This document shows, piece by piece, positions 1-32,888 of a DNA stretch of 64,000 nucleotides; positions within the stretch are counted from its first letter, which is position 1, and each line of letters opens with the position of its first letter. The stretch spans positions 224,001 through 288,000 of the forward strand of contig CAJWLU010000002.1 of the NCBI GenBank assembly GCA_913043225.1, in the 5' to 3' direction. The notes below the pieces were generated by a model, which was not told the origin of the DNA, searched no databases, and saw only the letters and a list, made by a program, of their open reading frames with translations. This DNA comes from an uncultured Acidobacteriota bacterium (GTDB taxonomy: Bacteria > Acidobacteriota > Vicinamibacteria > Vicinamibacterales > UBA8438). The position numbers were made by a program, and so were the translations under genes.

Positions 1-1483
1 TCGACATCATGCCGAAGTAGAAGATGAAGAAGTGGGCGGCCAGAGTCACCACGCCCAGGTTTTCCAGCACGGATCCGATCAGAGTGGCCAGCAGGAGATA
101 ACAGACGGCCGAGGGTAGGCCCATGCCTAGGATAATCGACGACACCATGATCAGCACCAGCGCGAGGAAGAGGCTCTGCTCGGCCAGCGGAAGGATCGTG
201 GCTGGCAAGCGGGTGCCGATGCCGGTCAGGGTGACGATGCCGATGATGATGCCCACTGACGCCGACGCCGCCACCAGCGAAATGACATCACGGGCCGACT
301 TGACGAAGGCCTTGAAGATAGCGCCTACCTCCAGACGGGTGCGCGGGTGGAATGCCCCCACCACCACGATGGCTAGCAGCGACATGCTTACGGCGCGGAA
401 GGGCGTGTAGCCGACGATCAATAGCGTGATCAGAGTGCCGAGCGCGGTCACGAAGACCATCCCCTCGGGACGCAGCTCCGCCAGCGACTTGGTCTGGGTC
501 GGCTCGGCGTCGTCGACCGAGGCGGTGGCGGAGACGCTTCGCGCCTGGAAGTGAGTGATCAGGAACAGCGACAGGTAGTACAGGACCCCTGGGATCAGGG
601 CGGCGCGGATGATCTGGAGATAGGTTACCCCGGGGATGATCTCCAGCATCATGTAGGCGCCGGCGCCCATCACTGGTGGCATCAGCGCGCCGCCGGAGCT
701 GGCGGCGGCCTGAATGCCTGCGGCCGTCGTCGCCTTGAAGCCGGCACTCCGCATCATCGGGATCGTAAAGGTGCCGGTGGTCGCGGTATTGGCCACCGCG
801 CTTCCCGAGAGCGATCCCATGAGCCCGCTGCTGAGCACCGCCACCTTGGCCGGGCCGCCCGGGCTTCGGCCGAAGACCGACTGCGCGAAATCGATGATGA
901 ACTTCGTAGCCCCGGTGGCGCTCAGGAATGCTCCGAAGATGACGAACAGGAACACGTACGTGAACATCACCCCCAAGGCCACGCCAAAGGTGCCCTGCGC
1001 TTGCAGGAACGTCTGTGCCACGATGCGGGGCAGCGTGTAGCCACGGTGGGGGAATAGCCAGTCGGGCATGCTGGGCCCGATATAGGCGTAGATCAGGAAG
1101 AGCCCGCACAGAATCGGGAGCGCCCAACCGAGCGATCGCCGCGCCGCCTCGATCACCAGTACGAGGCCGATGACACCCACCAGTATGTCGGTTGGCGTTT
1201 CGAATCCGGCCCGATTCCCGAGGGTCGACCCGTTCTGCCAGAACGCCTCAAAGTACGGCTCGTTCTGCATCATGACCCAGCCGCAGCAGGCAGCGGCGAG
1301 CAACGCCAGGACCACGTCGCTGGCCTTGGCTACCGGATGGTTTTTGAGCGAAGGGTGAAGCGGAACGTTGAGGAAGCAGATGACGAGCCCCAGCAGGGCG
1401 AATAGCGCTAGCTGGGGGAGCGGGGCCAGCAGCGGATAGTTCACTTGTACCAGTGTGAACACGCAAAGCCCGACCGCCAGCAC
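1..1483 (-). CDS. TRAP transporter fused 4TM/12TM permease (partial, runs off the left edge)
   Basis: Not in the ORF track. Manual translation gives ...WLFPHRGY...GTFGVALGVMFTYVFLFVIFGAFL...GGPAKVAVLSSGLMGSLSGSAVANTATTGTFTIPMM...AAASSGGALMPPVMGAGAYMM, the hallmark fused TRAP permease motifs. It lies directly downstream of a TAXI gene. Start is uncertain (GTG 1483 or CTG 1513). Confidence 0.92.
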   Translation of the reverse strand, partial: MLAVGLCVFTLVQVNYPLLAPLPQLALFALLGLVICFLNVPLHPSLKNHPVAKASDVVLALLAAACCGWVMMQNEPYFEAFWQNGSTLGNRAGFETPTDILVGVIGLVLVIEAARRSLGWALPILCGLFLIYAYIGPSMPDWLFPHRGYTLPRIVAQTFLQAQGTFGVALGVMFTYVFLFVIFGAFLSATGATKFIIDFAQSVFGRSPGGPAKVAVLSSGLMGSLSGSAVANTATTGTFTIPMMRSAGFKATTAAGIQAAASSGGALMPPVMGAGAYMMLEIIPGVTYLQIIRAALIPGVLYYLSLFLITHFQARSVSATASVDDAEPTQTKSLAELRPEGMVFVTALGTLITLLIVGYTPFRAVSMSLLAIVVVGAFHPRTRLEVGAIFKAFVKSARDVISLVAASASVGIIIGIVTLTGIGTRLPATILPLAEQSLFLALVLIMVSSIILGMGLPSAVCYLLLATLIGSVLENLGVVTLAAHFFIFYFGMMS

Positions 1484-1530
1484 ACGGGTGACGTGCTGCC
1501 GCGGAGTGACCAGGCCAGAGGGTGCCGTCT

Positions 1531-2511
1531 TTACGGCCAGATTCCGATCTCCTGATAGAAGCGGATGGAGCCGGGGTGAAACTCTGTGCCGCTGTCACGC
1601 ACCACGTTGGCGGCCACGATGGCCCGACCGGCACCGTGGCGCTCCACCACGCTGGCCGCGTTCTCGTAGAGCGTCTTCGTGACGTTGTAGACCAATTCCT
1701 CGTCGGCGTTTGACGAGGTGATTAGGTGCATCGACCCGACGTCGAGTCCCTCGAACGCCTCGTTCTGGCCGCGGTAGGTGTCGGCTGGGATCGTCGCCGG
1801 GCGGAAGAACAGATACTCGTCGATCAGTCCCTGCTTGGCGGTCTCGTCGAAGGGAATGAAGTGGATGTCCTGCGACGCCGACGCCTGGGTGATGGCCGGG
1901 TTGGGAATCGCGCCGCCCACGAACACTGCCGCCGCCGAACCGTCGGCCAGCAGGTCGACGGCCCCGGACTGGGTGGCATTGACCGGGTCGAAATCGTCGT
2001 AGGTGATGCCATGCGCGCCGAGCAGCGGACGGATGAAGTACTCGAAGCCAGCTCCTGCCACGCCGACGCCGACACGTTCACCGCGCAGATCCGCCATCGT
2101 CTCGACACCCGAGTCGGTCGGCGTGATCCAGAGCGCGACATTGGGCGCCAGCGTCATCACCGTGCGCATCGGGTAGGCCTGGTCCCAGCCCTCGGTGCCA
2201 CGCACGGCGAAGTAGGTGATGGCGGCGTTCGATAGAGCGAAATCGAGCTCGCCGCTCACTAGTCGACGGATGTTCTCCTGCGAGCCGCTGGTCGCCTCAG
2301 CGGTGGTGTTCCAGCCAAAGCCGGCGCCGAACTCGTTCATGACCTCGGCCAGCGCGCTCCCGAAGACGAAGAAGGTCCCGCCCGGGGGCGCGGTGCCCAT
2401 ACTCACGAAGACCCGCGACGGCGCGTCATCGTTACCGCCACCGTCCCCGCCGCCGCACGCGACGGCGGTCGCGGCGAGAGTGAGCGCTATACAAAACCCA
2501 AGTCGACGCAT
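1531..2511 (-). CDS. TAXI-family TRAP solute-binding lipoprotein
   Basis: Lipobox (AVAC), GTAPPGGTFF, ATSGSQENI, DLRGERVGVG, C-terminal FHPGSIRFYQE; AGGAG upstream of the ATG. Confidence 0.92.
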   Translation of the reverse strand: MRRLGFCIALTLAATAVACGGGDGGGNDDAPSRVFVSMGTAPPGGTFFVFGSALAEVMNEFGAGFGWNTTAEATSGSQENIRRLVSGELDFALSNAAITYFAVRGTEGWDQAYPMRTVMTLAPNVALWITPTDSGVETMADLRGERVGVGVAGAGFEYFIRPLLGAHGITYDDFDPVNATQSGAVDLLADGSAAAVFVGGAIPNPAITQASASQDIHFIPFDETAKQGLIDEYLFFRPATIPADTYRGQNEAFEGLDVGSMHLITSSNADEELVYNVTKTLYENAASVVERHGAGRAIVAANVVRDSGTEFHPGSIRFYQEIGIWP

Positions 2512-2664
2512 CTGCTTGCTTCTCCTGGCCCGGACCGCTCGTGGTCAGGGCGAAGTCCCTTGGATCGAACCCGTGACCGCGAGCGGTCAGAGCGGAATCG
2601 TCCAGGTCGGACCCGTAATGGTACCCCAGGGCCGACGCGGGGACCGCACGGACGGCAAAGAAAC

Positions 2665-3019
2665 CGGTCCGAAGATGGAGAGCAGGTGTCCGTCTAGATC
2701 CCGGAAGTTGGCGGCCTACTGGTCACGTTTCGTGGTGCGGCGAGAAATTCGATGCCGCGGGCCGAGAGTGTCACTTGGGCTTGGTTAACGTCGTCGACCA
2801 CGAACACGATTTCCGTGTCGTGTGCGACCGGCTCGGAGAGTTTGGCGTGCGCCGTGCTCAGCGTCAGCGTGATCCCGCCATTACCAAGAAACACGGACCC
2901 CTCGCGTTCTGAGACTGCATCGCACGATCGAGCGTTTCGACGTAGAAGTCGACCGACCGGACCAGGTCCGTCGTGCCCAGCATGACCTTCGAGACACCCT
3001 TGAGCTTGACGTTAGTCAT
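2665..3019 (-). pseudogene. VOC/glyoxalase-family gene, frameshifted
   Basis: ATG 3019 overlaps the upstream stop (GATGACTAA). Three frames join up: MTNVKLKGVSKVMLGTTDLVRSVDFYVETL / EGSVFLGNGGITLTL...EIVFVVDDVNQA...LSARGIEF / DQ*AANFRDLDGHLLSIFGP. Two frameshifts (about 2900 and 2722) plus a TAG at 2716-2718. Confidence 0.8.
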
Positions 3020-4334
3020 CGGCCGAATCCTTCACCACGAACCGCCGCGATTTCAGTTCGAATCGAGGCAGCGTACCCGCGTCGACGGCGCACACGGGCA
3101 CGGTCAGACCGAGTGCCTCCTGCACCACCTGACCGACCCTGGCGGCGACCGTCTCTGGTTCGCCCGTCGTCGGCGCAACCTCGACTTCGATCGACAGCTC
3201 GTGGAGCGGACTCGTGGCGTTCACGGTCGAGCGGAATTCGGTCACTTGGGTTACCTGTCGAACTAGCGCTTCGATCGCAACCGGATAGACGTTGACTCCT
3301 CGCACACAAACCATGTCGTCCGCGCGTGACAGCACCCCGCCCTCGATCTGGCGGAGTGTACGGCCGCATGTACAGGGCGTCGATCGAAGTCTGACGATGT
3401 CCCTGGTGCGGTAGCGAATGACGGGGCTGGCGATGCGCCCCAGGTTGGTGACGACGAGCTCCCCTGGCTCGCCCTCCGCCGCTGGCCGGTCCGAGCCGGG
3501 ATCGAGGAGCTCACAGATGAACTGCGTCTCGTTTAGGTGAAGCGCGCCCGGGTGTTCCCAGCACTCGAAGCTCACCGGGCCCACCTCGGTCAGTCCGTGG
3601 TGATCGATCACCCTGGCGCCCCAGCCTTGCTCGATCTGCCAGCGCGTGGCGTCGATGCTGCCGCCTGGTTCTCCGGCGACCACGATGGTGCGCACCGTCG
3701 AGATGGGCAGATCTAGGCCCATGGCCCGCGCCACCTCGAGAAGACGGAGCGCATAGGTGGGGGTGCAGCAGACGACCTCGGGAGCCACCGCGTCGAGGAG
3801 CTTGAGCCTGGTCTCGCTCGACATGCCTCCCGCCGGCACGACTCGGGCCCCGAGCTGAGTCGCCGCGTCGAAGGCCGACCAGAACCCGAGGAACGGTCCG
3901 AAGCCGAACGGGAACAGGATAGTGTCGCCAATCCCGATGCGGGCGGCGTGGAACACCGAACGCCAGCAGTCGGCGACCCAGCGCCAGCTCTCCGGAGTGT
4001 CGAGCCAGCGGAGCGGCGGGCCGGTGGTGGACGAAGTTTGGTGATAGCGGGTGTAGCGGGTCAGCGGTTCGGTGTGCGCGGTGCCCCAAGGAGGCGTGGC
4101 TGCCTGGTCCGATGCGAGCTCCTGCTTCGTGGTTAGGGGAAGCCGCGCCAGGTCTTCCAGGGTACGGATCTCGCTGAGATTGACCCCAGCGGACAGGAAT
4201 TTCTCCGTATAGAAGCGATTCGTGCCGTCCACTGCACCGAGTAGCTCCGTCAGTCGGACGAACTGCTGGTGCCGACGTTCGTCACTCGAGAGGCACTCCG
4301 ACGGGGGCGGTGCCCACCGCGGGTCGCCCGTCAT
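3012..4334 (-). CDS. Phenylacetate-CoA ligase (PaaK)-like aryl-CoA ligase
   Basis: LPLTTKQEL, P-loop QTSSTTG, CTPTYAL, AGEPGG, HHGLTEVG, GELVVTNL, IRYRTRD, RADDMVCVRGVNVYP, LPRFELKSRR. Confidence 0.88.
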   Translation of the reverse strand: MTGDPRWAPPPSECLSSDERRHQQFVRLTELLGAVDGTNRFYTEKFLSAGVNLSEIRTLEDLARLPLTTKQELASDQAATPPWGTAHTEPLTRYTRYHQTSSTTGPPLRWLDTPESWRWVADCWRSVFHAARIGIGDTILFPFGFGPFLGFWSAFDAATQLGARVVPAGGMSSETRLKLLDAVAPEVVCCTPTYALRLLEVARAMGLDLPISTVRTIVVAGEPGGSIDATRWQIEQGWGARVIDHHGLTEVGPVSFECWEHPGALHLNETQFICELLDPGSDRPAAEGEPGELVVTNLGRIASPVIRYRTRDIVRLRSTPCTCGRTLRQIEGGVLSRADDMVCVRGVNVYPVAIEALVRQVTQVTEFRSTVNATSPLHELSIEVEVAPTTGEPETVAARVGQVVQEALGLTVPVCAVDAGTLPRFELKSRRFVVKDSADD

Positions 4335-4765
4335 AACGACCCTGCTCCCGGTGCTTCCGTGAAGCGCTCGGCGATTTCGGCCGGGATGGGCGTGCCCCGC
4401 ATCGGCTCACCGGGCACTTTGGTGACGCAAGCGATGGTGAGGGCGCCTCTCGCCACGGTATCTCCTGCCGACTTGATCTCGGCGGTGTAGGAGAGGCTCT
4501 TCCCCGACTTCCGCGCGATCCTGAGCACAACCTCGAACTCGTCCTCAAAGCGCAGCGGTCTCAAGAACTCGAAATTCGTGGCGACCCGAGGGAATCCGAT
4601 GCGGGCCGAGGGCGGCGCGATGCTCAGACCGGCTTTCCGCCACATGGCGTGTTCGGCTTCCTCCATGTACCGAAAGAACACGCTGAAGTGGACGATGCCG
4701 GCGGTGTCGGTCTCGTAGAACTGAACGCGACGCTTGAGGCGGAACTCGCTGATCGGAGTAAACAT
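4331..4765 (-). CDS. Hotdog-fold acyl-CoA thioesterase (4HBT/YbgC family)
   Basis: RRVQFYETDTAGIVHFSVFFRYMEEAE with the catalytic Asp; EFLRPLRFEDE. Likely start ATG 4765 (ORF track extends to 4795). Stop overlaps the next start (ATGA). Confidence 0.88.
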   Translation of the reverse strand: MFTPISEFRLKRRVQFYETDTAGIVHFSVFFRYMEEAEHAMWRKAGLSIAPPSARIGFPRVATNFEFLRPLRFEDEFEVVLRIARKSGKSLSYTAEIKSAGDTVARGALTIACVTKVPGEPMRGTPIPAEIAERFTEAPGAGSL

Positions 4766-4791
4766 GGCAGGGGTTTGACCACTCCCGCCTC

Positions 4792-6045
4792 TCAACTCGC
4801 CACCGGGGCCGGACGCGGGCCGCCCTGCGCCAGGTAGCTGTTCATCGCCTCGAACAGCGGTTGCAGGTCCTTGTAGACGTTTCCGACCAGAGCATCGACA
4901 AGTTGCGGCTGCAGATCTGGGTGCTCGCTAACAAACTCGCCGAAGTTGAAGGTCCGGTCGTAGAACGCCATGACCAAGTGCCGGAAGCTGTCCAGGCCGT
5001 GCCGCACGTCCCGTGTGTAGCTCTCGAATGCGGCGGCAGACACATCACCCTGATCGAGCGCCGTATGGATGGCGTCGGCCGCAAGTTCGCCCCCTTTGAG
5101 CGCGAGAAAGACACCGGATGAAAAGACGGGATCCAGGAACGAGAAGGCGTCACCGACCAGCACGAAGCCGTCGCCGGCCGCCTGGGTGGCCCGATAGCTA
5201 AACTCTCCGGTGACCCGCATCGGTCCCAGATAGGTGCCAGGCGTGATGTGGTCCTTGATCCAGGAGCATCCATTGGCCTCGCGGCAGAAGATCTCTTCAG
5301 GGTCGCGGCTGTTGCGATAGAGATATTCGTGATCCGCGACCAGGCCGACGCTTACGGTATCGTCCGCCAACGGGATGTACCAGAACCACCCTTTGTCGGC
5401 GATGTAGGCCACCGTCGTAGCGCCTTCGTCCAGTCCGGGGTCCCGTTTGGCGCCCTTGAAGTAGGTGAAGATTGCCAGCTTCTTGAGGTCAGGGTCTCGT
5501 CGTTTCCACCCCAGGCGGCTCGCTAGTAGGGTGTCGCGTCCGGTGGCGTCGACGACCACCTTTGATGACAGCTCCTCGGTTGTGTTGCCCGACTGCGCCG
5601 TGACGCCGACGACCTGGTTGCCGTCTCGAATGATGTCTTGCACCCGAACGCCCTCGCGCACCTCAACGCCGTGCGACGCGGCGTTCTCCAGCATCATCCG
5701 GTCGAAGTCGCTGCGCAGGATCTGCCAGGTGCTCGCGCATTCGTGCTCGATTGTTTGGAAGAAGTAGAACGGCTGACTGACCTTGCCCGAGGTCGACACG
5801 AACTGGACACTGTGTTTGAGCGGGCTCCCCGAGGTCTTCAGCCAGTCGAGTACCCCGAGGCGCTCGAAGCTGAACCAGGTGTAGGGCATCAGCGATTCAC
5901 CGATGTGATGCCTGGGGAACTGTTCCCGCTCGAGCAGGAGCACCCTGCGCCCGTGCTGCGCCAGCACTGTCGCCGTGGCCGCCCCGGCCGGTCCTCCGCC
6001 AGCCACGACCGCATCCCAGGTTCCGTTCGTGCTCATGCCGCTCAC
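4792..6045 (-). CDS. Flavin-dependent halogenase-like FAD oxidoreductase
   Basis: GGGPAG FAD motif, FPRHHIGESL, conserved Lys in SPLKHS, RSDFD, VDATGR, WFWYIP (WxWxIP), GDA followed by FLDPVFSSG (Fx.Px.Sx.G). Confidence 0.82.
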   Translation of the reverse strand: MSGMSTNGTWDAVVAGGGPAGAATATVLAQHGRRVLLLEREQFPRHHIGESLMPYTWFSFERLGVLDWLKTSGSPLKHSVQFVSTSGKVSQPFYFFQTIEHECASTWQILRSDFDRMMLENAASHGVEVREGVRVQDIIRDGNQVVGVTAQSGNTTEELSSKVVVDATGRDTLLASRLGWKRRDPDLKKLAIFTYFKGAKRDPGLDEGATTVAYIADKGWFWYIPLADDTVSVGLVADHEYLYRNSRDPEEIFCREANGCSWIKDHITPGTYLGPMRVTGEFSYRATQAAGDGFVLVGDAFSFLDPVFSSGVFLALKGGELAADAIHTALDQGDVSAAAFESYTRDVRHGLDSFRHLVMAFYDRTFNFGEFVSEHPDLQPQLVDALVGNVYKDLQPLFEAMNSYLAQGGPRPAPVAS

Positions 6046-6046
6046 C

Positions 6047-6628
6047 TCACACGAGTGGCAACACCTCGACGATGTCGCCGACTTTCCGACCCCCGCTCGC
6101 CATCTCCGTGCGGCGCCCGTAGAGCGTCCGTGACTCGCGCATCCAGAACACTCCCATCATCTCCGGGTTCGGTTCAAGAGCGAGGAACGCCTTCGCATGG
6201 CTGTCGTAGTTGAATCGCCTCTCGCGGAGCAGCCGCCCGAGAGGCACCTCGTTGCGCAGAATCTGCTGGGTCAGTTTCGTGCCGAACGCGTCCAGCTTGA
6301 TCCGGATTGCGCCCATCTCTACCGGTCGCCCCGTGTACTCCTGCACCAGTAGCACCCGCCTGAAATACCACCCGCCAAGCGTGAACGTGCCGAGTGCGCG
6401 GAGCACGACCCGTCCCCCGTAGTGGTGCTCCAGCCGGCTGGTCATATCCTCTCCATGGACCAGCAACGAATGATACGGGGCCGGGATTTGCTCCGGCGTG
6501 ACGATCTTCCAAATCGGCATTTCGATACCGGCGCGACCATAGACCTTGTCCAGCGGATACAGTGTGCCGCTGACTGATGACCGTTTCTTCGGCATGGTGT
6601 GGAGCCGTCGGACCGAAGAACTCGTCAT
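6047..6628 (-). CDS. Chorismate pyruvate-lyase (UbiC)-fold protein
   Basis: Motifs colinear with E. coli UbiC as recalled: LLVHGEDMTSRLE ~ LLLEDSMTKRFE; FRRVLL ~ LREILL; VPLGRLL ~ TPLGRYL; LYGRRT ~ LWGRRS; IVEVLP ~ LTELFLP. Confidence 0.65.
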   Translation of the reverse strand: MTSSSVRRLHTMPKKRSSVSGTLYPLDKVYGRAGIEMPIWKIVTPEQIPAPYHSLLVHGEDMTSRLEHHYGGRVVLRALGTFTLGGWYFRRVLLVQEYTGRPVEMGAIRIKLDAFGTKLTQQILRNEVPLGRLLRERRFNYDSHAKAFLALEPNPEMMGVFWMRESRTLYGRRTEMASGGRKVGDIVEVLPLV

Positions 6629-6635
6629 TGCGGTC

Positions 6636-6662
6636 CTCCTGTCTCCTGTCTCCTGTCTCCTG
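6636..6662 (-). repeat. Heptamer tandem repeat (ACAGGAG) x about 4, forming stacked Shine-Dalgarno motifs
   Basis: The + strand reads ctcctgt ctcctgt ctcctgt ctcctg, filling most of the gap between the radical SAM stop and the ATG at 6628. Confidence 0.9.
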
Positions 6663-6667
6663 GCGAG

Positions 6668-7999
6668 CTAGGTGTACCTAATCTTCGTGTGCTCTGGCAG
6701 GAAGAAGCGTGGCAGCAGACTGTCGACTCGGAGCAATCCGGCTCTCGTTAGTGCGACCTGTTCGCCGTCGGCTGCTAGCAAATAGCCGTCTCTACGCAGC
6801 GACGTGAGCGGCTCGCCGAAGCGTTCGATCACGTCGACGCCGTACTTCTGTCTGAAGGAGCCTGGCTGGATCGAGCCGAGCTTGAGCTGGAGCACAAACT
6901 CCCGGATTAAACGCTCTTCGTCGGTCGGTCTGAACGCCCGGTTGAGCGGTAGCTTCCCGCCCTGGACGGCTGCGGCATAGGGTCCCCACGTGTCGAGGTT
7001 CTGCATATGCACGCCGTTGACGTGCCCAAACGACGCTACCCCGAGCGCCGCGAGATCAGCCCCACGCCACAGTTGGTCTCGATAGACGAACCTGGTCCGA
7101 TCCGGTTGCTTGACTGCGGTGTAAGCGCTCCCGACGGTGTAGCCTGCTGCTTCGAGCGCGGCGAACGCCTCATCCACCCAGCGCCGCTTGGTATCCCAGT
7201 CGGCTACCCGTTCGGCGAACTGCCCGGTGCCCTGCAGCAGGTCGCTGCTGATTGTCGTGTTGTAGGGCAGCTCCATCTGATAGATGGTCACGCTGTCCGG
7301 GCTCATGTCGATGGTGCGCGCGACGGCGTTGCGCCACCGTTCGTCGGTGTCGCCCAGCATCCCGGCGATGAGGTCGATGTTGATCTGCGGAAAGTCGAGC
7401 GACTGCGCGAACCCGTAGGCACGAAAGATTTCGGCCGACCGGTGGGCACGTCCGTTCAGTTCGAGGACCTCGTCGTCGAAGTGTTCGAGGCCCAGGCTGA
7501 GCCGGGTGATGCCCATGTCGCGAATCTGGGCCAGCTTCGGTTCGGTCAGTGTTCCCGGCTCGCACTCGAACGTGATCTCCTCGGCGCTCGTCCATGGCGT
7601 CACGGCGGTGAGCCGGTCCACCAGGCTCTGCAGTTGCTTGACGGAGAGAAACGACGGGGTGCCGCCCCCGAAGTACACGAAGTTCAACGGGCGGCCGGCG
7701 ATGGCCGGTTGAGTGGCATAGAGCTCCCATTCGCGTGCCACCACATCGAGATACTCCGCGACCTCGCTGGCGTTCTTGTCGGTGTACACCCGGTAGTAGC
7801 AGAAGTGGCACCGTTTTCGGCAGAACGGAATATGGAGATAGAGGCCGAGCGGGACCTCGGCTGGAGGCTGGTTCAGGGCCGGCCGCGCCTCGGACTCCAC
7901 TGCCTCGTGTGTCCAGAGTGAGAAAGGTGGGTAGTTGGCGACGAAGTAGCTGCCGACTTCGGTGGAATCTGCCGGGCGGGTCGGTGAGGTGTCGCTCAT
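6668..7999 (-). CDS. HemN-like radical SAM enzyme (coproporphyrinogen III oxidase family; not true HemN or HemW)
   Basis: LYLHIPFCRKRCHFC (CxxxCxxC), YFGGGTPS, FECEP, RLSLG, NIDLIAG and a HemN_C-like C-terminus. Confidence 0.9.
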   Translation of the reverse strand: MSDTSPTRPADSTEVGSYFVANYPPFSLWTHEAVESEARPALNQPPAEVPLGLYLHIPFCRKRCHFCYYRVYTDKNASEVAEYLDVVAREWELYATQPAIAGRPLNFVYFGGGTPSFLSVKQLQSLVDRLTAVTPWTSAEEITFECEPGTLTEPKLAQIRDMGITRLSLGLEHFDDEVLELNGRAHRSAEIFRAYGFAQSLDFPQINIDLIAGMLGDTDERWRNAVARTIDMSPDSVTIYQMELPYNTTISSDLLQGTGQFAERVADWDTKRRWVDEAFAALEAAGYTVGSAYTAVKQPDRTRFVYRDQLWRGADLAALGVASFGHVNGVHMQNLDTWGPYAAAVQGGKLPLNRAFRPTDEERLIREFVLQLKLGSIQPGSFRQKYGVDVIERFGEPLTSLRRDGYLLAADGEQVALTRAGLLRVDSLLPRFFLPEHTKIRYT

Positions 8000-8051
8000 G
8001 CTCGAAATATACCTGTGTGCCGACGATGGGGTCAGATCGGCCCGTCCGAGA

Positions 8052-9185
8052 CTAGCCGAAGCAATACAGCACGCCGTCGCCGGACCCGATTACCAACTTG
8101 CCCTCGGCGATCGCCGGCGACGCTACTAGCGGGGCGGCGGTATCGAACTCCCACAGTTTCTCTCCGCTCTCGAGATCTAGGACATAGAGACGTCCGTCGC
8201 TCGAGCCGGCATAGACGCGGTCGCCGCTGGCCGCTGGAGACGAGTCCACTCTGGCGCGGGTCGTGAACGTCCACTTCGCTTCGCCAGTCGCCTCGTCGAT
8301 GGCGTGGACCATCTTGTCCCGCCCACCGACGACGATGGTCCCGTCGATGGCTAGGGCCGAGGAGTAGTAAGGGAAGTGGCGACGCGGATGTTCGTATCGC
8401 CACAGCAGTTCGTGGGTTTTGAGATCGAGACCAATTACTTCGTTGTCGTAGGTGCCGAAGAAGACCTTGCCGTCGCTGATGACCGGTGACGCGATAGTAT
8501 AGGCGCCCGCCGAGACTGCCACCACCTCCTCACCATCGCTGACCCGCACGCCGTGGAAGATCTCGTCGCATCCCCCGAAGTAGGCGATACCGTCGTGCAC
8601 GGCGGGTGTGGCGTGCACGTAGTTCGCAGTCTCGTACTGCCAGGTCATCGAGCCGTCTTCTATGGCAAGCGAGTAGAGGAACCCGTCGTAGGAGCCGATC
8701 ATGACGTGGTCGCCCACGATGACCGGTGACGACTTGATTTCGCCGAGCGTCTCGTAGGTCCAGCGCGCCTCGCCGGTCTGGACGTCGATGGCGTGGAACA
8801 CCCCTCCCAGGTCGCCGATGAACACCAAGCCGTCAGCCACCGCTGGCGATGATTCACCGATGCCCATGTCGCCGGTGGAATAGGTCCACTTCTCCTCTCC
8901 CGACTCGAGGTCAAGCGCCACTACTGTGCCCGCCCAGGTGCCAAAGTAGACGGTGCCGTCGACGATGGCCGCTGACGAATCGATGGCTTCGTCAGCCTCA
9001 TACGTCCACTGCAGCGTGAGCTCGGCCGGCAGCGTGGAGCCGGAGACACCGGTGAGAGAGGTATTGCCCCGGAACTGTGGCCAGGCGTCTGGGGAAGTGG
9101 TGGTGGGCCCCTGGGCTCCCAGAGGGCTGACGAGCCCGAGCGCCCCGAGGGTAAGTGCTGCGAAGGCCGTAACTAGAACGCGCAT
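8052..9185 (-). CDS. Secreted PQQ-binding-like (BamB-like) beta-propeller protein
   Basis: Signal peptide [17 protein letters not shown]..., WPQFRG, about 8 repeats of SSPxxxDGxVY/F...ALDxxxGExxW. The start overlaps the ADH 3' end by 13 nt. Confidence 0.88.
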
Positions 9186-10363
9186 CGGTATACCTCCAAA
9201 GCGTGCGCTGCGGTGAGCGGCCGCGGATTGAACGTGCCGGTCCACTGCTGGGCGGCATCCTCGGCCAGGACTGGGAGCGCGTTTTGCTCCACCCCTTCCG
9301 GTCCGAGGCGGGCTGGCAGTCCGCCGAGCGTGGCCAGCGTGCGCAGTCGCTCAGCGAGCCGTGCGCTGGCCTGTTCACTGTTGGCGGCGTCCACGAGACG
9401 CGCATACAGTGCTCCCGCGGTCTCGCCGTTCCAGCGAACCACATGTGGAAGCAGAATACCTAACGCGACGCCGTGGGTCATCCCGTAGCGGGCGGTCAGG
9501 GGGTTGGCCAGGGCGTGGGCGGCGCCCAGCATCGACTGCTCGATGGCCCAGCCGGCGTGGAATGCCCCCAGTTGCATGGCGGCGCGGGCCTCTATGTCGT
9601 CGGGCGTTGTCAGCACTCGCTCATAGGCGCCTTCGAGCAGTCGCCAAGCCTCGCGTGCCAGCGCCTCTGAGAGCACAGTGCCTCGCGTAGTCACCGCGGT
9701 CTCGACTGCGTGGGCGATTGCGTCGAATCCTGACGTCGCAGTCACCCTGGCAGGTTGCGACAGGGTCAATGACGGATCCAGTAGTGCGACGCGGAAAGCG
9801 GCCTTAGGGTCGCCGCAGGCCATCTTGAGGTGCGTGGTCGCGTCGGCGATGACGGCGTAGCTCTGTGCCTCGCTGCCTGTTCCGGCCGTGGTTGGTACCC
9901 CGATCATCGGCAGCATTGGTCGGTTCGCCTTACCGTAGCCCCGGTAGTCGGACATCGCGCCGCCGTTGCTGAGTAGGAAGTTGATCCCCTTGGCACAGTC
10001 CATGGAACTGCCGCCACCAAGCCCCACGATCCCATCAATCCCCAGGGGGTGGGCCAGCGCGCACCCTGCCTCGACCATCGCGGTGTCGGGATTGACGTCG
10101 AACTCGTGGAACCGGTTCACCGTGAGTCCCGCATCACTGAGCAGCCGCTCGGCGACCGCCACGTGACCCGCGTCGACCAGTCCCTGGTCGGCGACCAGGA
10201 GCGGCCGCTGGAATCCCAATTCTGCCGCGACTGTACCGAGGCGCTCCATCACGCCTGCCCCGAACAGCAGTCGCGTTCGCGGTTCGAATTCGAAGGCCGT
10301 CGAGACTGGCCGTGGGCTATCGGTCAGCGCGTCTGACGCCAGGGGGTCGCTGGTAGCGGCCAT
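9173..10363 (-). CDS. Iron-containing alcohol dehydrogenase
   Basis: [21 protein letters not shown], metal ligands DAIAH, AAHALA, HGVA; C-terminal NPR. Start taken as ATG 10363, 16 nt after the TonB receptor stop. Confidence 0.92.
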
Positions 10364-10379
10364 GAGGTGGGGTGTGGGG

Positions 10380-13300
10380 TCAGAACAGCAGCTTGATTCC
10401 AAGCTGCAGTCGGCGTGCCGGCTGAGCCGAGAGAATCTGGCCGAAGGTTGGCGAACCGAGGAAGGCATCGGGCAGGTTGAAATTGGTGCGGTTGAACAGG
10501 TTGAACGCTTCGAGTCGAAGCTGCAGGTCGGTCGATTCGCTCAGGCCGACCCGCTTGAGCAACGCCAGGTTGACGTTGGCGAAGCCGGGGCCATCGAAGC
10601 CGTTGCGCGGACTGTCCCCAAAGGTGCCGAAGGCTGGAAATGCGAACGCGTCGGTGTTGAACCACCCGTCGGGGCTAGGGTTCTCTGCCGCGGCGCTGTC
10701 CACCAGATTCGGGCGGTCGTTGGCGCCAAAGCCGAGAGCCGCGCGTCCGGTGTTGCTGTTGTCGATCTCGGGGAGCAGCGCCACCGTGAAGGGGCTGCCA
10801 CTTTGCGTCGAGATCACCCCCGCCAACTGCCAGTCGCCGAAGACGCTCGCTAGCCCGCCCGTGTCCCCCTGGTTCCGTCCGTAGGGTAGCTCGTAGGCGA
10901 AGCTCACAGATAGGCGGTGGCGGACGTCGAAGTTGGACCGGCTGAACTCGGCGTCCGGATTGTTGCTGTCCTGAGGGAAGTTCGGGTCTCCGGCGCTCGA
11001 GAAGAAATCGGATCCGTCGTCCTCGGACTTGCCGAGCGTGTAGGCGGCCAGTAGGGACAGGCCACTGCGATAGCGCTGTTCACCGGTGATCTGCACTGCG
11101 TGATAGCGTGACCGGCCCCGTGACTCGAGTGACACGATATCTGCAAAGAGCGGGTTGGGACGTAGATTCAGAGGGTTCGGGCTGGCGTCAGCCTGATTGA
11201 TGTCGCGCCCGCGGAGCAGATTGTTCCCGCGCGAGCCGACGTAGGCCATCTCGATCGAGCGCCCTGGTCCGATCTCCTGCTGGACGGTCGCGTTCCAGTG
11301 TTGCAGGTACGGCGTCTCGAGGTCGCGCTGAATCGTTAGCGCCGACGGCGGCAGCGCGAATGGGAAGAAGCTCGGGAACGGATCGAATAACGTGAGCGGG
11401 AGCCCAGGTAGCGGGAAGAACAGGTTGAAGTCAAAAAACGGTGGGTTGAAGTAGAGCCCCTCACCCGGTGCCAGGGCCGCCTGATCGTAGTAGACCCCCC
11501 AGCCGCCGCGGATGATTGTCCGGCCACCGTTGAGGGCCAGCGCGGCGCCCAGCCGCGGCGCCAGGTTGTTACGGTCGGGGTCGTAGCCGGCGCGTGGGAT
11601 GCCGCCGGTGCCCACCGCGACGAGTGAGCCGGTGGCCGGGTCGTAGACATTAGCCCGGTCGTCGGCGTCCACGGCGGGCGAGGCATAGTCGTAACGGAGG
11701 CCGGCCGAGACGGTCAGGTTCGACCCGATCTGGATGTCATCCTGGACGAACAGGTTGTAGCTCGAGGTGCGCAGCTGCTGCGGGTTGTCGAGGCGTGCGC
11801 CGCCGGTTACCAGAGGCAATCCCAGCAGCAGGTCAGCGAGCGCGTTACCGGTGAACGCCATCGGGAACGATGAAAAGGTCAGGAGCCCTCTCGACTGGAC
11901 GTCCCGGAAGGCGTCTTGCTGCGTGAACTGCAGGTCGGCGCCGAATTTGAACAGGTGCGCTCCGCGGGCGTAGGTCAAAGTGTCGAGGACCTGCACCGTG
12001 CCGGTGCTACTGTCCTGCGGATTGTTGTACTCGTCCCCCAGCGGCGAGTAGCCGGTGATCGTGATGAAGCTTAGGCCGTGGTCGCGGACGTTGTCCGAGA
12101 GCTCTGGGAGGCCAAGCGCCTGATTTAGGCTGTTCCCGCTATTTTCGTGGAAGGCGGCGCTCGAGACCCGGGTGTAGCTCACGCGCAGGTCGTTGACGAC
12201 AGACGATGACATGACCCCGGTGAAGCTGCCGAGCACGTTGTGGGCCCGTTGCGGCACGTTCGTGCCGAAGCCCGGTACTTGGCTGAAACCGGGACCCGAG
12301 AACGGCTCGTAAAAGTCACGGTCGGCCACGCTGTAGCGCAGCGTGAGGTTCGACGAAGGTCCGGCCCGGTGGTCGATGCGCGCGTCGAACTGGTCGTTGC
12401 GGTCGGTCAACAACGGCGAGGACACGTAGTTGGCAAATGGCGCGTCGCGGTTCGGGAGAGGATAGAGATTGGCAATCGCTTGCCCGATCGGATTGATGAA
12501 CGGCGCTGGCAGCTGACTGCCGGGGAACGGGAACGGCGTACCGGGCACGAGCGGGGCGGGAAACAGGCTGTCCGAGAAATCGCCCTGGCGCTCGGCTAGG
12601 GTGGGGACGTTGGTCACTCGCGTGATGCTCTCCCGCAGCCGCGTCCCTTCGTAGTCGACGAAGAAGAAGGTCCGATCTTCGATCAGCTTGCCACCGAGTG
12701 AGCCGCCGAACTGGTTCCGTCGGTAGTCTGGGTCCGGCTCGCCCTGGGGAGCATAAAAATTGGAGGCGTTGAGCGAGTCGTGCCGAAAGAACTCATAGAG
12801 GGTACCGTGGAACTGATTGGAGCCAGCCTTGGTGATGACGTTGATCTGCGCGCCGGCGTGTCGGCCGTAGGCGGCGTCGTAGCTGCCGGTCACGACCCGG
12901 AATTCCTCGATCGCGTCGACTGGGGGACGGACCGCCACCGTGTTGAGCTTGGGGTCGACGTTGTAGGCGCCGTCTAGGAGGTACGCGTTCGCCCCTTCCC
13001 GGGCGCCGTTGACGTTGAGCGTGAAGGCACCCCGCACCGAGCCAGCTGAGCCCTGTGCGGCCGTCGTGGTGCCCGGGACGAGCAATGACAGGTCCAGGAA
13101 GTTCCGGCCGTCGAGCGGCAGGCTGGTCACCTGTACGTTGTCGATGACGGTGCTCAGGCCGTGCGCCGCGAACGCCACGGTTGGTTCCCCCGTGACCACA
13201 ACCTCCTCGGAGACCGCGCCGACCTCCAGCGTCAGCTGGAGCTGAAGTTGTTGACCGACCTGCAGGGTCGTCTCGCGGATCAGTCTACGATGTCCGCTGG

Positions 13301-13544
13301 CAGCCGTCTCGACCCGGTAGCGGCCCGGTGCGAGCTGGGACACCGCGAAGCGACCCTGGTCATCGGTCGTCGCGGTACGGGCCAGCGCCGTGGCTTCGTC
13401 GACGACCGTGACGTCGGCGTTTTCTACCCTCGCTCCCGTGGCGTCGGACACCGTGCCGCGGATGACAGCAAGATGGGTCTGTGCCGTTGCGCCGACGCCC
13501 CCAAAAAAGACAAGAGCGGCACCGGCAAGGGTTCGTTCGAACAA
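10380..13544 (-). CDS. TonB-dependent receptor, Oar-like, with N-terminal carboxypeptidase-regulatory-like domain
   Basis: IRGTVSDATGA, LPLDGRNFLDL, DAIEEFRV, TKAGSNQFHG, DRNNLAPRLG, RLEAFNLFN; ends RRLQLGIKLLF with a terminal Phe. Confidence 0.92.
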   Translation of the reverse strand: MFERTLAGAALVFFGGVGATAQTHLAVIRGTVSDATGARVENADVTVVDEATALARTATTDDQGRFAVSQLAPGRYRVETAASGHRRLIRETTLQVGQQLQLQLTLEVGAVSEEVVVTGEPTVAFAAHGLSTVIDNVQVTSLPLDGRNFLDLSLLVPGTTTAAQGSAGSVRGAFTLNVNGAREGANAYLLDGAYNVDPKLNTVAVRPPVDAIEEFRVVTGSYDAAYGRHAGAQINVITKAGSNQFHGTLYEFFRHDSLNASNFYAPQGEPDPDYRRNQFGGSLGGKLIEDRTFFFVDYEGTRLRESITRVTNVPTLAERQGDFSDSLFPAPLVPGTPFPFPGSQLPAPFINPIGQAIANLYPLPNRDAPFANYVSSPLLTDRNDQFDARIDHRAGPSSNLTLRYSVADRDFYEPFSGPGFSQVPGFGTNVPQRAHNVLGSFTGVMSSSVVNDLRVSYTRVSSAAFHENSGNSLNQALGLPELSDNVRDHGLSFITITGYSPLGDEYNNPQDSSTGTVQVLDTLTYARGAHLFKFGADLQFTQQDAFRDVQSRGLLTFSSFPMAFTGNALADLLLGLPLVTGGARLDNPQQLRTSSYNLFVQDDIQIGSNLTVSAGLRYDYASPAVDADDRANVYDPATGSLVAVGTGGIPRAGYDPDRNNLAPRLGAALALNGGRTIIRGGWGVYYDQAALAPGEGLYFNPPFFDFNLFFPLPGLPLTLFDPFPSFFPFALPPSALTIQRDLETPYLQHWNATVQQEIGPGRSIEMAYVGSRGNNLLRGRDINQADASPNPLNLRPNPLFADIVSLESRGRSRYHAVQITGEQRYRSGLSLLAAYTLGKSEDDGSDFFSSAGDPNFPQDSNNPDAEFSRSNFDVRHRLSVSFAYELPYGRNQGDTGGLASVFGDWQLAGVISTQSGSPFTVALLPEIDNSNTGRAALGFGANDRPNLVDSAAAENPSPDGWFNTDAFAFPAFGTFGDSPRNGFDGPGFANVNLALLKRVGLSESTDLQLRLEAFNLFNRTNFNLPDAFLGSPTFGQILSAQPARRLQLGIKLLF

Positions 13545-13669
13545 CTGGGTCTCCTAGTGTCACTGAGGGGCATCTTCGAGTTTCAATGGTAACAGTGAAT
13601 CCAGGGACAGGGCTATTATGGCGGGAGCTGGCGGTGATGGACGTTCGTGGCTGATTCCCCAGGCCCGCT

Positions 13670-14998
13670 ATGTACGAGGATTATTACCGTTTCCGTCGTC
13701 AGCCCTTCAGTCCGACCCCGGACCCAGAGTTCCTGTACAAGAGCGGCTCTCACCAGGAGGCGCTCGAGCAGCTCCTTCGCGGAGTGCGTCGCCGCGAGGG
13801 CATCCTACTGCTCAGCGGTGCCGTCGGGACTGGCAAGACGACCACAACCCGGGCGCTCTTGCAGTTTCTTGACCGTGACGTGTTCACTGCGCTGGTTCTG
13901 AATCCCTTCGTGACGGCGGATGAGCTGCTGCGGGTGCTGCTCCAGGACTTCGGTGTGGTGTCCGACGGGCGTACCCTGCAGGACGCCAGCCGACAGAGTC
14001 TGGTCGAGACCCTCAACCGATTCCTGCTCTCGCTGTCGACCGTTGGGGCGAGCGCGCTAGCCGTGGTCGACGAAGCACAGAACCTGCCGGCTGAGACTCT
14101 CGAGCAGTTGCGGGTGCTGACCACGCTGGAAACCGACCGCCAAAAGCTGTTGCAGATCCTGCTGGTCGGACAGCCGGAGCTGTTGACGGTGCTCGGCAGC
14201 TCCGAGATGCGTCCGCTGAATCAGCGAGTCGCCAGACGGTGCGAGCTCTTTCCTCTCAACCGGGACGAGGTCGAGAAGTACATCGAGTTCCGTATCCGGA
14301 TGGCGCAAGGGGCGTCGGAAACGATGTTCGTCGCACGTGCCATCGATCTCGTGTACCAGCTGAGCGAGGGCGTGCCCCGGAAGATCAACCTGATCTGCGA
14401 TCGGTCGCTCGAGGCTGGGTGCGCCGGGCTCAAGCCAACGATCGACGAGGTCATCGTGGCCAAGGCGGCCGAGGCCCTGGACCTAGCGGGAAGGGTTCCC
14501 ACTCTGGGGAGTGTGTCCCTGCCCACCGTCCGGAGCCCTGGCCGCCTCGGACCACAGACCCGCCGCATGCTGGCGGCAGCGGCGGGTGTGGTCGCCGGTG
14601 TCGGTTTCGCCGTGTTGCTCGCGGTCTACGGTCCAGAGGTCTTGAGCGGCCGCCCGGCCGTGTCGGGGCCCTCCCCCCAGCTGGCCCCCATCGAGTTGCC
14701 CCAGCCGATCGATCTGTCCACCGCGACTGACGCGGTGCTCGACGAGACGTATGTGCTGAGGACCGGCGTCTTCGAGACGACCGAGGCGGCAGAGGCGGGC
14801 GCGGAAATGCTGCGAGATCTCGGAGCGCCTGCGATTCTTGCGCCCGTGACCCTCAATGACGGCACGACGGGCCAGGCCATCTGGATTGGTCCCTACGCTT
14901 CTGAGGCGGATGCCGAGCAGCTCAGGTTGATCGTCACCGACCGGTACGGATTCGGCGACGTTCAGGTGGTTGCCGTGTTACTGCCGGACGCCCAGTAG
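13670..14998 (+). CDS. ExeA/GspA-like AAA ATPase with TM helix and C-terminal SPOR-like domain
   Basis: MYEDYYRFRRQPFSPTPDPEFLY, Walker A GAVGTGKTT, VDEAQNL, LLVGQPEL, GVPRKINLICD; TM near aa 300; IWIGPYASEADAEQL. Confidence 0.88.
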   Translation: MYEDYYRFRRQPFSPTPDPEFLYKSGSHQEALEQLLRGVRRREGILLLSGAVGTGKTTTTRALLQFLDRDVFTALVLNPFVTADELLRVLLQDFGVVSDGRTLQDASRQSLVETLNRFLLSLSTVGASALAVVDEAQNLPAETLEQLRVLTTLETDRQKLLQILLVGQPELLTVLGSSEMRPLNQRVARRCELFPLNRDEVEKYIEFRIRMAQGASETMFVARAIDLVYQLSEGVPRKINLICDRSLEAGCAGLKPTIDEVIVAKAAEALDLAGRVPTLGSVSLPTVRSPGRLGPQTRRMLAAAAGVVAGVGFAVLLAVYGPEVLSGRPAVSGPSPQLAPIELPQPIDLSTATDAVLDETYVLRTGVFETTEAAEAGAEMLRDLGAPAILAPVTLNDGTTGQAIWIGPYASEADAEQLRLIVTDRYGFGDVQVVAVLLPDAQ

Positions 14999-15030
14999 CC
15001 CGTGCCCGCACGACCGCCCATGCGACGGCG

Positions 15031-22991: not shown

Positions 22992-23332
22992 CCTGCCCTG
23001 GGTCGTCTCAGGCCCGGCGTCGCCAGCCAGATCCCGAGGGCGGTTGCGGTCGCCACGCTGCACCATCGGACTGTCAGGCGCCGACCGTCGATCCGTGACT
23101 CCCACCGTCTCAACGGCAGACCCTGGTAGGTCGGTAGACCACGACGTCTGGGATGGTTCCCGTCGTCGGCCGCGTCGGGGCGAACTGGGGTGCCGACCGT
23201 GATCAACGCGCTGCTAGCTGCCACCCGGAACTCGGGATCGTCGACCCGCACATGCATCCAGGGCGGCACTAGTCCGACGAGACTGAAGGTCACCATGCCG
23301 AGGCTGAGGATCACGTGTTGGGTGGTCGTCAT
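22988..23332 (-). CDS. Hypothetical 2-TM membrane protein
   Basis: Start overlaps the upstream stop. Hydrophobic N-terminus ending LVPPW, and ...RIDGRRLTVRW followed by a second TM. Confidence 0.6.
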   Translation of the reverse strand: MTTTQHVILSLGMVTFSLVGLVPPWMHVRVDDPEFRVAASSALITVGTPVRPDAADDGNHPRRRGLPTYQGLPLRRWESRIDGRRLTVRWCSVATATALGIWLATPGLRRPRAG

Positions 23333-32748: not shown

Positions 32749-32888
32749 GTCGAGCGGCGGAGTCAGGTTCCTCCGAGGTGACCATTCGAGCGCTCCCGGC
32801 GTCTGACAGAGAAGCCGCCGGCATTGGCGCCGGTCCGCGGCGTTCGAGACGCGCTGGCGCCCAGTCCAAGGGAATTACGGTTTCGTTC

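Follow-up and report, generated by a model that had tools for sequence, protein, structure and literature searches.

A conserved module pairing a chorismate-lyase-type protein with a flavin-halogenase-type enzyme and a HemN-like radical SAM enzyme in uncultured Acidobacteriota

Our subject is a 64,000-nucleotide stretch of DNA from an uncultured member of the Acidobacteriota (contig CAJWLU010000002.1; G000:C2:224001-288000), referred to here as the window. The host genome, G000, measures 3.85 Mb and is 96% complete; other G numbers denote genomes of relatives and L numbers their loci. We find that the window carries a conserved module of six genes. These encode an exported beta-propeller, a HemN-like radical S-adenosylmethionine (SAM) enzyme, a diverged chorismate-pyruvate-lyase-type protein (hereafter the lyase), a flavin-dependent halogenase-type enzyme, a hotdog-fold thioesterase, and a PaaK-like ligase. 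The first four form the core of the module; the thioesterase and ligase are frequent members. The module is real, widely conserved and uncharacterised, and is a variation on the theme of chorismate lyase plus halogenase. In our preferred interpretation, to which we give a probability of about one half, it would convert chorismate to 4-hydroxybenzoate. This would then, probably as a coenzyme A (CoA) thioester, be halogenated and modified by the radical SAM enzyme before release.

The module lies in a row of nine reading frames, all on the minus strand, spanning positions 13544 down to 2694 in the open reading frame (ORF) map. In order, the frames encode a TonB-dependent receptor, an iron-containing alcohol dehydrogenase (Fe-ADH), the six module proteins as listed above, and a VOC-type relic. 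The original prediction described nine co-oriented genes at these places, and the gaps that it gave were reproduced using likely starts (ATG at ~10363 for Fe-ADH, MRVLV at ~9185 for the propeller, and ATG at ~4765 for the thioesterase). Its family identities were also borne out. Eight of the nine are backed by Pfam and NCBIfam and the ninth, the 193-residue lyase, by an AlphaFold model and Foldseek. The six module genes are intact and lie side by side. Note that none of the six module proteins reaches an NCBIfam equivalog cut-off. As had been claimed, a scan of 13 proteins across 1-19.5 kb revealed no domains of carrier proteins, polyketide synthases (PKS) or prenyltransferases. Nor was a PP-binding domain, a P450 domain or a decarboxylase found in or beside the module, and the intergenic gaps are too short for a carrier protein. 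A carrier domain turned up just once in the window, in a 936-residue, Aas-like fusion of PP-binding, AMP-binding and acyltransferase domains (23329-26139, minus strand). This is ~10 kb from the module, with gyrA and gyrB between.

Conservation of the module is clearest within the family of the host, which belongs to the Vicinamibacterales. The lyase was detected in 24 of 41 related genomes, G000 included. Leaving G000 aside, it is present in 22 of 24 genomes from the same family and in one of 16 other families of the order. Of the 23 non-self lyase matches, we took 20, each with 20 kb of surrounding sequence, and compared them with 15 window proteins; the matches left out were in G001 and G009, on short contigs, and G030, at a contig edge. 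The propeller, radical SAM enzyme, halogenase, thioesterase and ligase each recur in 19 of these 20 family loci, with their order unchanged. In the odd one out, G011, the lyase gene is separate from the rest and next to one for a GT4 glycosyltransferase. Its other genes, from propeller through radical SAM enzyme, halogenase, thioesterase and ligase to VOC, sit without a lyase at a second site. Similarly, in G018 the cluster no longer contains the lyase, and the radical SAM gene is directly followed by that for the halogenase. Insertions of 1-6 kb occur at the propeller/radical SAM and radical SAM/lyase junctions (L016, L019, and L013). Across the 41 relatives, the lyase and the radical SAM enzyme occur together in 24, the radical SAM enzyme alone in four, the lyase alone in none, and neither in 13. 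In G014 (2.5 Mb, 97% complete) the lyase, radical SAM orthologue, halogenase and ligase are all missing together. A search with the radical SAM enzyme also showed that 12 of these 16 other families lack the module. Hence, the module is not essential. Note that gyrB and gyrA, next door, are syntenic too, so family-level synteny alone proves little.

The same genes are found together at greater distances. Our phylum-level comparison covered 301 genomes. Of these, 25 encode a lyase homologue, including 20 that are not from the family, and we examined 19 such distant acidobacterial places. Three, from three families, combine a radical SAM-lyase pair with thioesterase, ligase and halogenase, in differing orders and among unrelated housekeeping genes. 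At the others we found lyase-halogenase-thioesterase-ligase (one), lyase-ligase-halogenase (one), ligase-lyase (one), or the lyase alone (13). Five genomes with an unlinked lyase all encode a full-length radical SAM orthologue elsewhere (51-61% identity). A metagenome scan, with six diverged lyases, then returned 80 soil and peat loci, with lyases 33-42% identical to that of the window. Here the order is propeller-radical SAM-lyase-halogenase. Counting only loci with enough flank, the radical SAM gene lies at most 1 kb upstream of the lyase in 43 of 44, and the halogenase gene at most 1 kb downstream in 40 of 46 (at most 7 kb in 43 of 46). The thioesterase is present in 9 of 20 loci and the ligase in 5 of 20. 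Synteny of the cytoplasmic enzymes, without which the original prediction would fail, is seen in 19 of the 20 family loci and also in distant acidobacterial and metagenome loci. Fused proteins were also found: radical SAM-lyase (P0192/P0276, P0306, P0307, and P0310) and lyase-halogenase (P0309). One metagenome locus has a DUF1559/N-methyl gene, of a type that we take to be typical of planctomycetes.

Two further genes appear in the metagenome clade. In 19 loci a GT4 glycosyltransferase gene follows the halogenase, between it and the thioesterase. The best G000 match to this GT4 (38-40% identity) is at G000:C20:38795-41660 (L225:6796-9661), directly after a different, 462-residue PQQ_2 propeller. 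In eight loci, a 188-residue protein without a Pfam family is encoded between thioesterase and ligase (for instance L176:11944-12510 and L185:11860-12423). It has a homologue, 40-42% identical, at G000:C1:15728-16165.

The lyase (6047-6628, minus strand) is the member hardest to recognise. It gave no sequence match in Pfam (E up to 10), NCBIfam, or a PDB profile search, and neither PF04345 nor PF01947 matches any G000 protein. The original prediction called it a UbiC-fold protein and this call stands. Its AlphaFold (AF2) model (pLDDT 89) matched, in Foldseek, the DUF98 protein AF1396 (2nwi; E 7e-7, TM 0.79), E. coli UbiC (1g81/1fw9; TM 0.53-0.62), and UTRA domains. The modelled protein hence has the UbiC/UTRA alpha-beta fold. 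According to the available text of PMC7879144, UbiC residues Met34, Arg76, Leu114, and Glu155 hydrogen-bond 4-hydroxybenzoate. In a MAFFT alignment these correspond to M62, R90, L130, and E188 of the window protein. In alignments of 12 and 36 sequences M62, R90 and E188 are invariant and L130 is at least 90% conserved. The lyase thus shares its fold with E. coli UbiC and DUF98/Rv2949c and keeps the four contacts of UbiC to 4-hydroxybenzoate. It differs from E. coli UbiC in being just 22% identical, in matching no Pfam model, and in having no link to a prenyltransferase. Ubiquinone synthesis is not known from Acidobacteria. Judged by these residues, the lyase looks catalytically competent, its putative activity being conversion of chorismate to 4-hydroxybenzoate and pyruvate. 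In its tree, which has long branches, 16 of 36 inner branches are open; given this poor resolution we draw no order of events from it.

The halogenase-type enzyme (4792-6045, minus strand; Trp_halogenase, 117 bits) is of the short 'variant B' form, similar to Bmp2, CndH and PltA. It has 417 residues and no large C-terminal substrate domain. The closest PDB entries are CndH (3e1t, 1e-61) and Bmp2 (5bul, 6e-59), followed by Mpy16 and PltA, all four of them halogenases of carrier-bound substrates. The ten best matches also include ChlB4, CmlS and RadH, and run from 1e-61 to 3e-37. Flavin-dependent halogenases are defined by the motifs GxGxxG and WxWxIP and by a lysine. All three are present in the window protein, as GGGPAG, GWFWYIP and K77. 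Among 28 orthologues, K77 and FxxPxxSxG are kept in 28, and GWFWYIP in 27 with one GWFWFIP. With these signatures, and with halogenases as its closest solved relatives, the earlier family assignment as a FAD halogenase is upheld, and halide-dependent halogenation is a putative activity.

No other member of the module is as conserved or as widespread as the radical SAM enzyme (6668-7999, minus strand; Radical_SAM plus HemN_C), which shows 55-80% identity across clades. Residues C60, C64, and C67, forming CxxxCxxC, and the GGGTP motif (G111-P115) are invariant. The PDB matches are HemN (1olt, 3.6e-30) and NocN (9p2u, 1.7e-23). We tried, and rejected, assignment as HemN, HemW or ChuW. The scores of 165, 143, and 175 bits miss NCBIfam cut-offs of 325, 205, and 400, respectively. 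A true HemW is encoded elsewhere in G000 and scores 279 bits, above the cut-off. CxxxCxxC, GGGTP and HemN_C are common to HemN, HemW and ChuW, to class C methyltransferases of the NocN/NosN type, and to the window enzyme. What sets the latter apart from HemN, HemW and ChuW is its partnership with a lyase and a halogenase instead of heme genes. With its HemN-like core and both motifs it resembles class C radical SAM methyltransferases, and methyl transfer is a putative activity. As separate observations, L022 (G015:C161) has two tandem copies of the gene (10371-11699 and 11995-13323), with equal score and identity to that of the window, reflecting duplication or an assembly artefact. At G027:C10:868447-869749, where no lyase was found, the orthologue is in two overlapping pieces (residues 9-192 and 183-443) and is probably frameshifted.

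The two frequent members can be dealt with briefly. The PaaK-like aryl/acyl-CoA ligase (3012-4334, minus strand; AMP-binding plus AMP-binding_C_2) matches PaaK itself in the PDB (2y27, 2.9e-55). It has the fold and domains of the family and misses the cut-offs of the PaaK equivalog models (234/700 and 220/646). The FlxY and BagE models are also matched below cut-off. The 4HBT/YbgC-type thioesterase (4331-4795, minus strand; 4HBT_2, 49 bits, and 4HBT, 45 bits) matches aq_1494 (1.6e-12), YbgC, and a 4-hydroxybenzoyl-CoA thioesterase (5wh9, 3.8e-8). In the alignment, D29 falls on the Asp residue of the 'DTD' motif in YbgC, a residue that we take to be catalytic.

The propeller (8052-9185, minus strand; Beta-prop_ACSF4, 279 bits, and PQQ_2, 148 bits) is PQQ-like, or BamB-like. 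The maximal ORF reaches 9245; the likely start, MRVLV, is followed by what reads by eye as a Sec-type signal peptide lacking a lipobox cysteine. The AF2 model (pLDDT 85.8) has eight blades. In a fold search the best natural matches were BamB and YxaL (TM 0.77-0.85). The search otherwise returned designed propellers and tetrathionate hydrolase, and gave no functional lead. BamB itself was rejected as an identity: the signal peptide has no Cys, TIGR03300 scores 150 against a cut-off of 285, and the fold alone is BamB-like. The gene adjoins that for the radical SAM enzyme in 19 of 20 family loci and in 30 of 30 metagenome loci, where it is upstream. Propellers of the metagenome clade find their best G000 match in the window propeller (38-45% identity, versus 30% or less for other G000 propellers). 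They are hence true counterparts and not chance neighbours. Across propellers 38-43% identical overall, an FGGCD..H motif (C206, D207, and H211) and ~80 other positions are invariant, which hints at a defined site, unexpected for a BamB-like scaffold. In G000 (96% complete) we found no pqqC, and no pqqE over the cut-off; the pqqC search is a weak one, control genomes also being silent. The genome does contain a full-length PQQ-dependent dehydrogenase gene (G000:C20:46593-48557, L225:14594-16558; PF01011, 593 bits). PQQ_2-type propellers are numerous in G000, with matches on C1, C6, C18, C22, and C42. Two such genes, encoding 488 and 740 residues, are in tandem in the window (37681-41366, minus strand). 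A second TonB-dependent receptor gene is also present there (32745-35216, plus strand).

The stretch is present in DNA sequencing runs labelled as marine or seawater metagenomes. In addition, contigs from RNA libraries (four runs, three studies), 95-99% identical to the window, give partial cover of each gene between and including those for ligase and receptor. There are individual contigs that span the lyase/radical SAM (6542-6830), radical SAM/propeller (7823-8088), propeller/Fe-ADH (8845-9208), and Fe-ADH/receptor (10215-10532 and 10167-10461) junctions. Note that these contigs stem from close relatives and do not equate to single transcripts, and that their depths cannot rank genes. Uncovered stretches (2633-3043 and 11675-12496) carry no information, and the small shares of sequence words in RNA runs are no evidence of habitat. 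The contigs lend weak support to expression of, and read-through along, the gene row. A promoter and terminator scan of 1400-15100 found sites no more numerous than in shuffled sequence and leaves the operon ends undefined.

From these parts we propose the following scheme. The lyase would turn chorismate into 4-hydroxybenzoate. The PaaK-like ligase would form the aryl-CoA, substituting for the missing carrier protein, and the halogenase could then work on the thioester, ortho to the hydroxyl. The radical SAM enzyme may add a C1 unit to the ring, which we find most plausible, or perform some other radical step. Its tight pairing with the lyase, adjacent in 43 of 44 loci and occasionally fused, suggests that it acts early, on the lyase product. 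We keep the order of CoA activation, halogenation and radical SAM steps flexible. The hotdog thioesterase would free the acid, and the exported propeller might, once outside the cytoplasm, bind, use or process the product. GT4 may glycosylate the product in the metagenome clade. Flavin halogenases are usually scattered, strain-specific natural-product genes; this one is kept by nearly a whole family and also occurs in distant lineages from soil and sea. Its constant companion is a HemN-like radical SAM enzyme that has yet to be studied, and in most cases an exported propeller accompanies it as well. If the scheme is right, the halogenase would act on a CoA thioester rather than a carrier protein. 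Furthermore, class-C-like radical SAM enzymes would gain a new substrate class, and abundant uncultured bacteria would share a widespread halogenated aromatic metabolite, be it a signal, toxin, metal ligand or cofactor.

Several points weigh against this scheme. Every chemical step in it is deduced from sequence and fold. The lyase matches none of the Pfam chorismate-lyase models, and its hhalign comparison with UbiC was insignificant (probability 0.5). Among 45 window ORFs scanned there is no flavin reductase (Flavin_Reduct); host reductases often supply flavin to halogenases. In 4 of 41 relatives the radical SAM enzyme is present and no lyase was detectable, and so chorismate need not be the sole source of substrate. 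Retention in 22 of 24 family genomes, and the high identity of the radical SAM enzyme, resemble core physiology and not a typical natural product. In the metagenome clade the thioesterase and ligase are more loosely linked, and GT4 suggests a glycosylated product there, with variable later steps. The fused proteins, mostly single-member clusters of little weight, may be artefacts of sequencing or gene calling. The RNA contigs, which lack a silent-stretch control, may derive from DNA in the libraries.

The remaining genes of the row are less constant than the module, and the earlier view of a nine-gene operon as the functional unit did not survive. The receptor (10380-13544, minus strand; CarboxypepD_reg N-terminal domain, OMP_b-brl_4, 760 bits) was found at just two of the 20 family loci, L023 and L024, and at none of 20 long metagenome loci. 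It is a lineage-specific, recent neighbour, not a core gene. Of the exported components first proposed, the propeller is consequently retained and the receptor is not. Divergent from the receptor gene is one for an AAA_22 ATPase with a C-terminal SPOR domain (13670-14998, plus strand). In L023 and L024 this ATPase gene accompanies that for the receptor; L027 and L142 have the ATPase gene but no receptor gene. Fe-ADH (9173-10468, minus strand, likely start ~10363; Fe-ADH, 150 bits, plus ADH_Fe_C) is an accessory at the level of the family. It occurs in 18 of 20 family loci, one locus being cut by a contig end, and in none of 19 distant acidobacterial or 20 long metagenome loci. The glyoxalase/VOC-type gene (2694-3019, minus strand), described from the start as a relic, is indeed a pseudogene. 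It consists of two overlapping frames and a displaced C-terminal 'DLDGHLLSIFGP', is broken by at least two frameshifts in the window, and is a single intact ORF of ~120 residues in 12 of 20 family loci. The earlier gene list omitted a TAXI-type TRAP transporter located downstream (2-2511, minus strand; NMT1_3, 206 bits, and DctM, 245 bits). It comprises a binding protein (1531-2511), kept in 18 of 20 family loci, and a fused DctM permease (2-1483) that continues past the window edge. No match to it was found in the 80 metagenome or 19 distant acidobacterial loci. Receptor, Fe-ADH and transporter are additions of the lineage or family, perhaps for uptake, re-uptake or reduction of the same compound. 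Far from the module, a DUF1552 gene adjoins a PSD4/PSCyt3/PSD2 (DUF1592/1588/1585) gene (61558-63986, minus strand), a pair that is presumably typical of Planctomycetota, Verrucomicrobiota and Acidobacteriota.

Such neighbours are central to one alternative, in which the aromatic acid comes from outside. It would be imported by the TonB receptor and the TRAP system, handled in the periplasm by the propeller, activated by the ligase, and transformed by the flavoenzyme, radical SAM enzyme, thioesterase and Fe-ADH, for catabolism, detoxification or salvage. Importers do flank the cluster in the window, with TRAP retained in most family loci, and pathways that degrade aromatic acids and 4-chlorobenzoate typically include PaaK-type ligases and 4HBT thioesterases. 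TonB-dependent transporters are also reported, in the available text of 10.64898/2026.08.03.742642, for 'Halo_AMP' clusters, an orphan pseudoclass from sponge microbiomes in which Trp_halogenase and AMP-binding genes are close together. We nonetheless consider import unlikely. A lyase with the product-binding residues of UbiC would make the aromatic acid inside the cell, and the flavoenzyme is closest to biosynthetic halogenases. Moreover, the receptor is rare even in the family, and the 19 distant acidobacterial and 80 metagenome loci yielded no match to either importer.

A second alternative makes the propeller the substrate. Here, the flavoprotein and radical SAM enzyme would modify a propeller residue before export, so that a cofactor or cross-link arises from the protein itself. 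QhpG/QhpD act in this way on quinohemoprotein amine dehydrogenase, and LodB/GoxB on LodA/GoxA. The constant company of propeller, radical SAM enzyme, lyase and halogenase (19 of 20 family loci; 30 of 30 metagenome loci) fits this well, as does the invariant FGGCD..H. Among NCBIfam models the flavoenzyme scores best with CmlS (195 bits) and also matches QhpG (162 bits), LodB and GoxB, all below cut-off. The fold of QhpG is itself halogenase-like, CmlS being closest, in the available text of PMC7876137. Conversely, in PDB comparisons CndH (1e-61) far outranks QhpG (7ctq, 3.6e-6), and the halogenase lysine and WxWxIP are kept. The radical SAM enzyme is HemN-like and not SPASM-type; lyase, CoA ligase and thioesterase indicate small-molecule chemistry; and at three acidobacterial loci the full set of five enzymes is encoded without an adjacent propeller gene. 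We regard maturation of the propeller as improbable. A related idea joins both chemistries: a halogen-activated hydroxybenzoate could be a ligand, or covalent prosthetic group, of the propeller, attached for instance via Cys206 with the halogen leaving. Though this is a long shot, it would imply a quinoprotein-like periplasmic enzyme, made without PQQ synthesis, in Acidobacteriota and relatives.

It is equally doubtful that the module belongs to core metabolism, making a redox cofactor or quinone-type head group from 4-hydroxybenzoate. The flavoenzyme would then be a hydroxylase or halogenase and the radical SAM enzyme a C-methylase, with no prenylation. Presence throughout most of the family, and conservation of the radical SAM enzyme across clades, would suit such a role. 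A lyase, an enzyme of the FAD-monooxygenase superfamily, and a methylating radical SAM enzyme together echo ubiquinone and menaquinone tailoring, and MenK/MqnK offer a parallel in ring tailoring. Weighing more heavily with us, no prenyltransferase or decarboxylase is encoded within the module or next to it, the motifs of the halogenase are conserved, and most other families of the order, together with the near-complete G014, manage without the module. Finally, heme degradation by ChuW with the TonB receptor is rejected, the receptor not being conserved and the ChuW score lying under its cut-off.

Halogenation of a hydroxybenzoate made from chorismate, our preferred interpretation, has partial precedents. 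Full-text literature searches found no characterised pathway with the gene combination of the module, and no paper in which a HemN-like protein and a chorismate lyase appear together. CmlK/CmlS, of chloramphenicol biosynthesis, and ambigol Ab5/Ab6/Ab8/Ab10 pair an activating ligase with a flavin halogenase acting on a thioester-bound substrate, as we propose for the module. The ambigol substrate is 4-hydroxybenzoate from a chorismate lyase; unlike the module, the ambigol pathway relies on a carrier protein. CmlS is longer by a C-terminal domain, and neither system is known to have such a radical SAM enzyme or propeller. The carrier protein and P450 coupling enzyme that mark bmp- and ambigol-type clusters have no counterpart in the module.

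In bmp of marine Pseudoalteromonas, whose gene roles are taken in part from the available text of 10.1101/723874 and 10.64898/2026.08.03.742642, the chorismate lyase Bmp6 and flavin halogenation of a phenolic acid correspond to the window, and Bmp2 is a close match to the window halogenase. The differences are that 4-hydroxybenzoate is halogenated by Bmp5, a brominase/decarboxylase of another flavoenzyme family, and that Bmp2 acts on carrier-bound pyrrole. The bmp cluster has a carrier protein and a P450, and is not known to include a radical SAM enzyme, PaaK-like ligase, hotdog thioesterase or propeller. A further precedent is the baaA/baaB locus in Planctomycetales strain 10988, for which synthesis of 3,5-dibromo-p-anisic acid is a genetically untested proposal (10.1101/723874, available text). 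A UbiC-like lyase gene adjoins a flavin halogenase gene there, giving a stand-alone, non-modular pathway to halogenated 4-hydroxybenzoate in related bacteria. BaaB, compared by its description, is ~44% similar to Bmp5 and is not of the Bmp2/CndH type. The available text of the same source mentions no radical SAM enzyme, ligase, thioesterase or propeller for this locus.

Similar in gene content are the Halo_AMP clusters, catalogued in a 2026 preprint (10.64898/2026.08.03.742642, available text). The Trp_halogenase (4792-6045) and AMP-binding (3012-4334) genes of the module lie within the distance set by the antiSMASH rule for Halo_AMP. The featured Halo_AMP family, CC A, was rejected as the same cluster, since its core, as described, has P450s and the window module has none. 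The pseudoclass is computational and heterogeneous, and the word 'chorismate' does not occur in the preprint text as available. Its clusters, 16% of them from Acidobacteriota, fall into 20 architectures and have no MIBiG match. Hence, the description of the module as undescribed stands insofar as no characterised pathway matches, and gives way insofar as similar clusters are already catalogued. The reported Halo_AMP inventory of PaaK/BagE-like ligases, Bmp2-like halogenases, uncharacterised radical SAM enzymes, frequent PQQ-like domains, thioesterases and TonB transporters fits the window.

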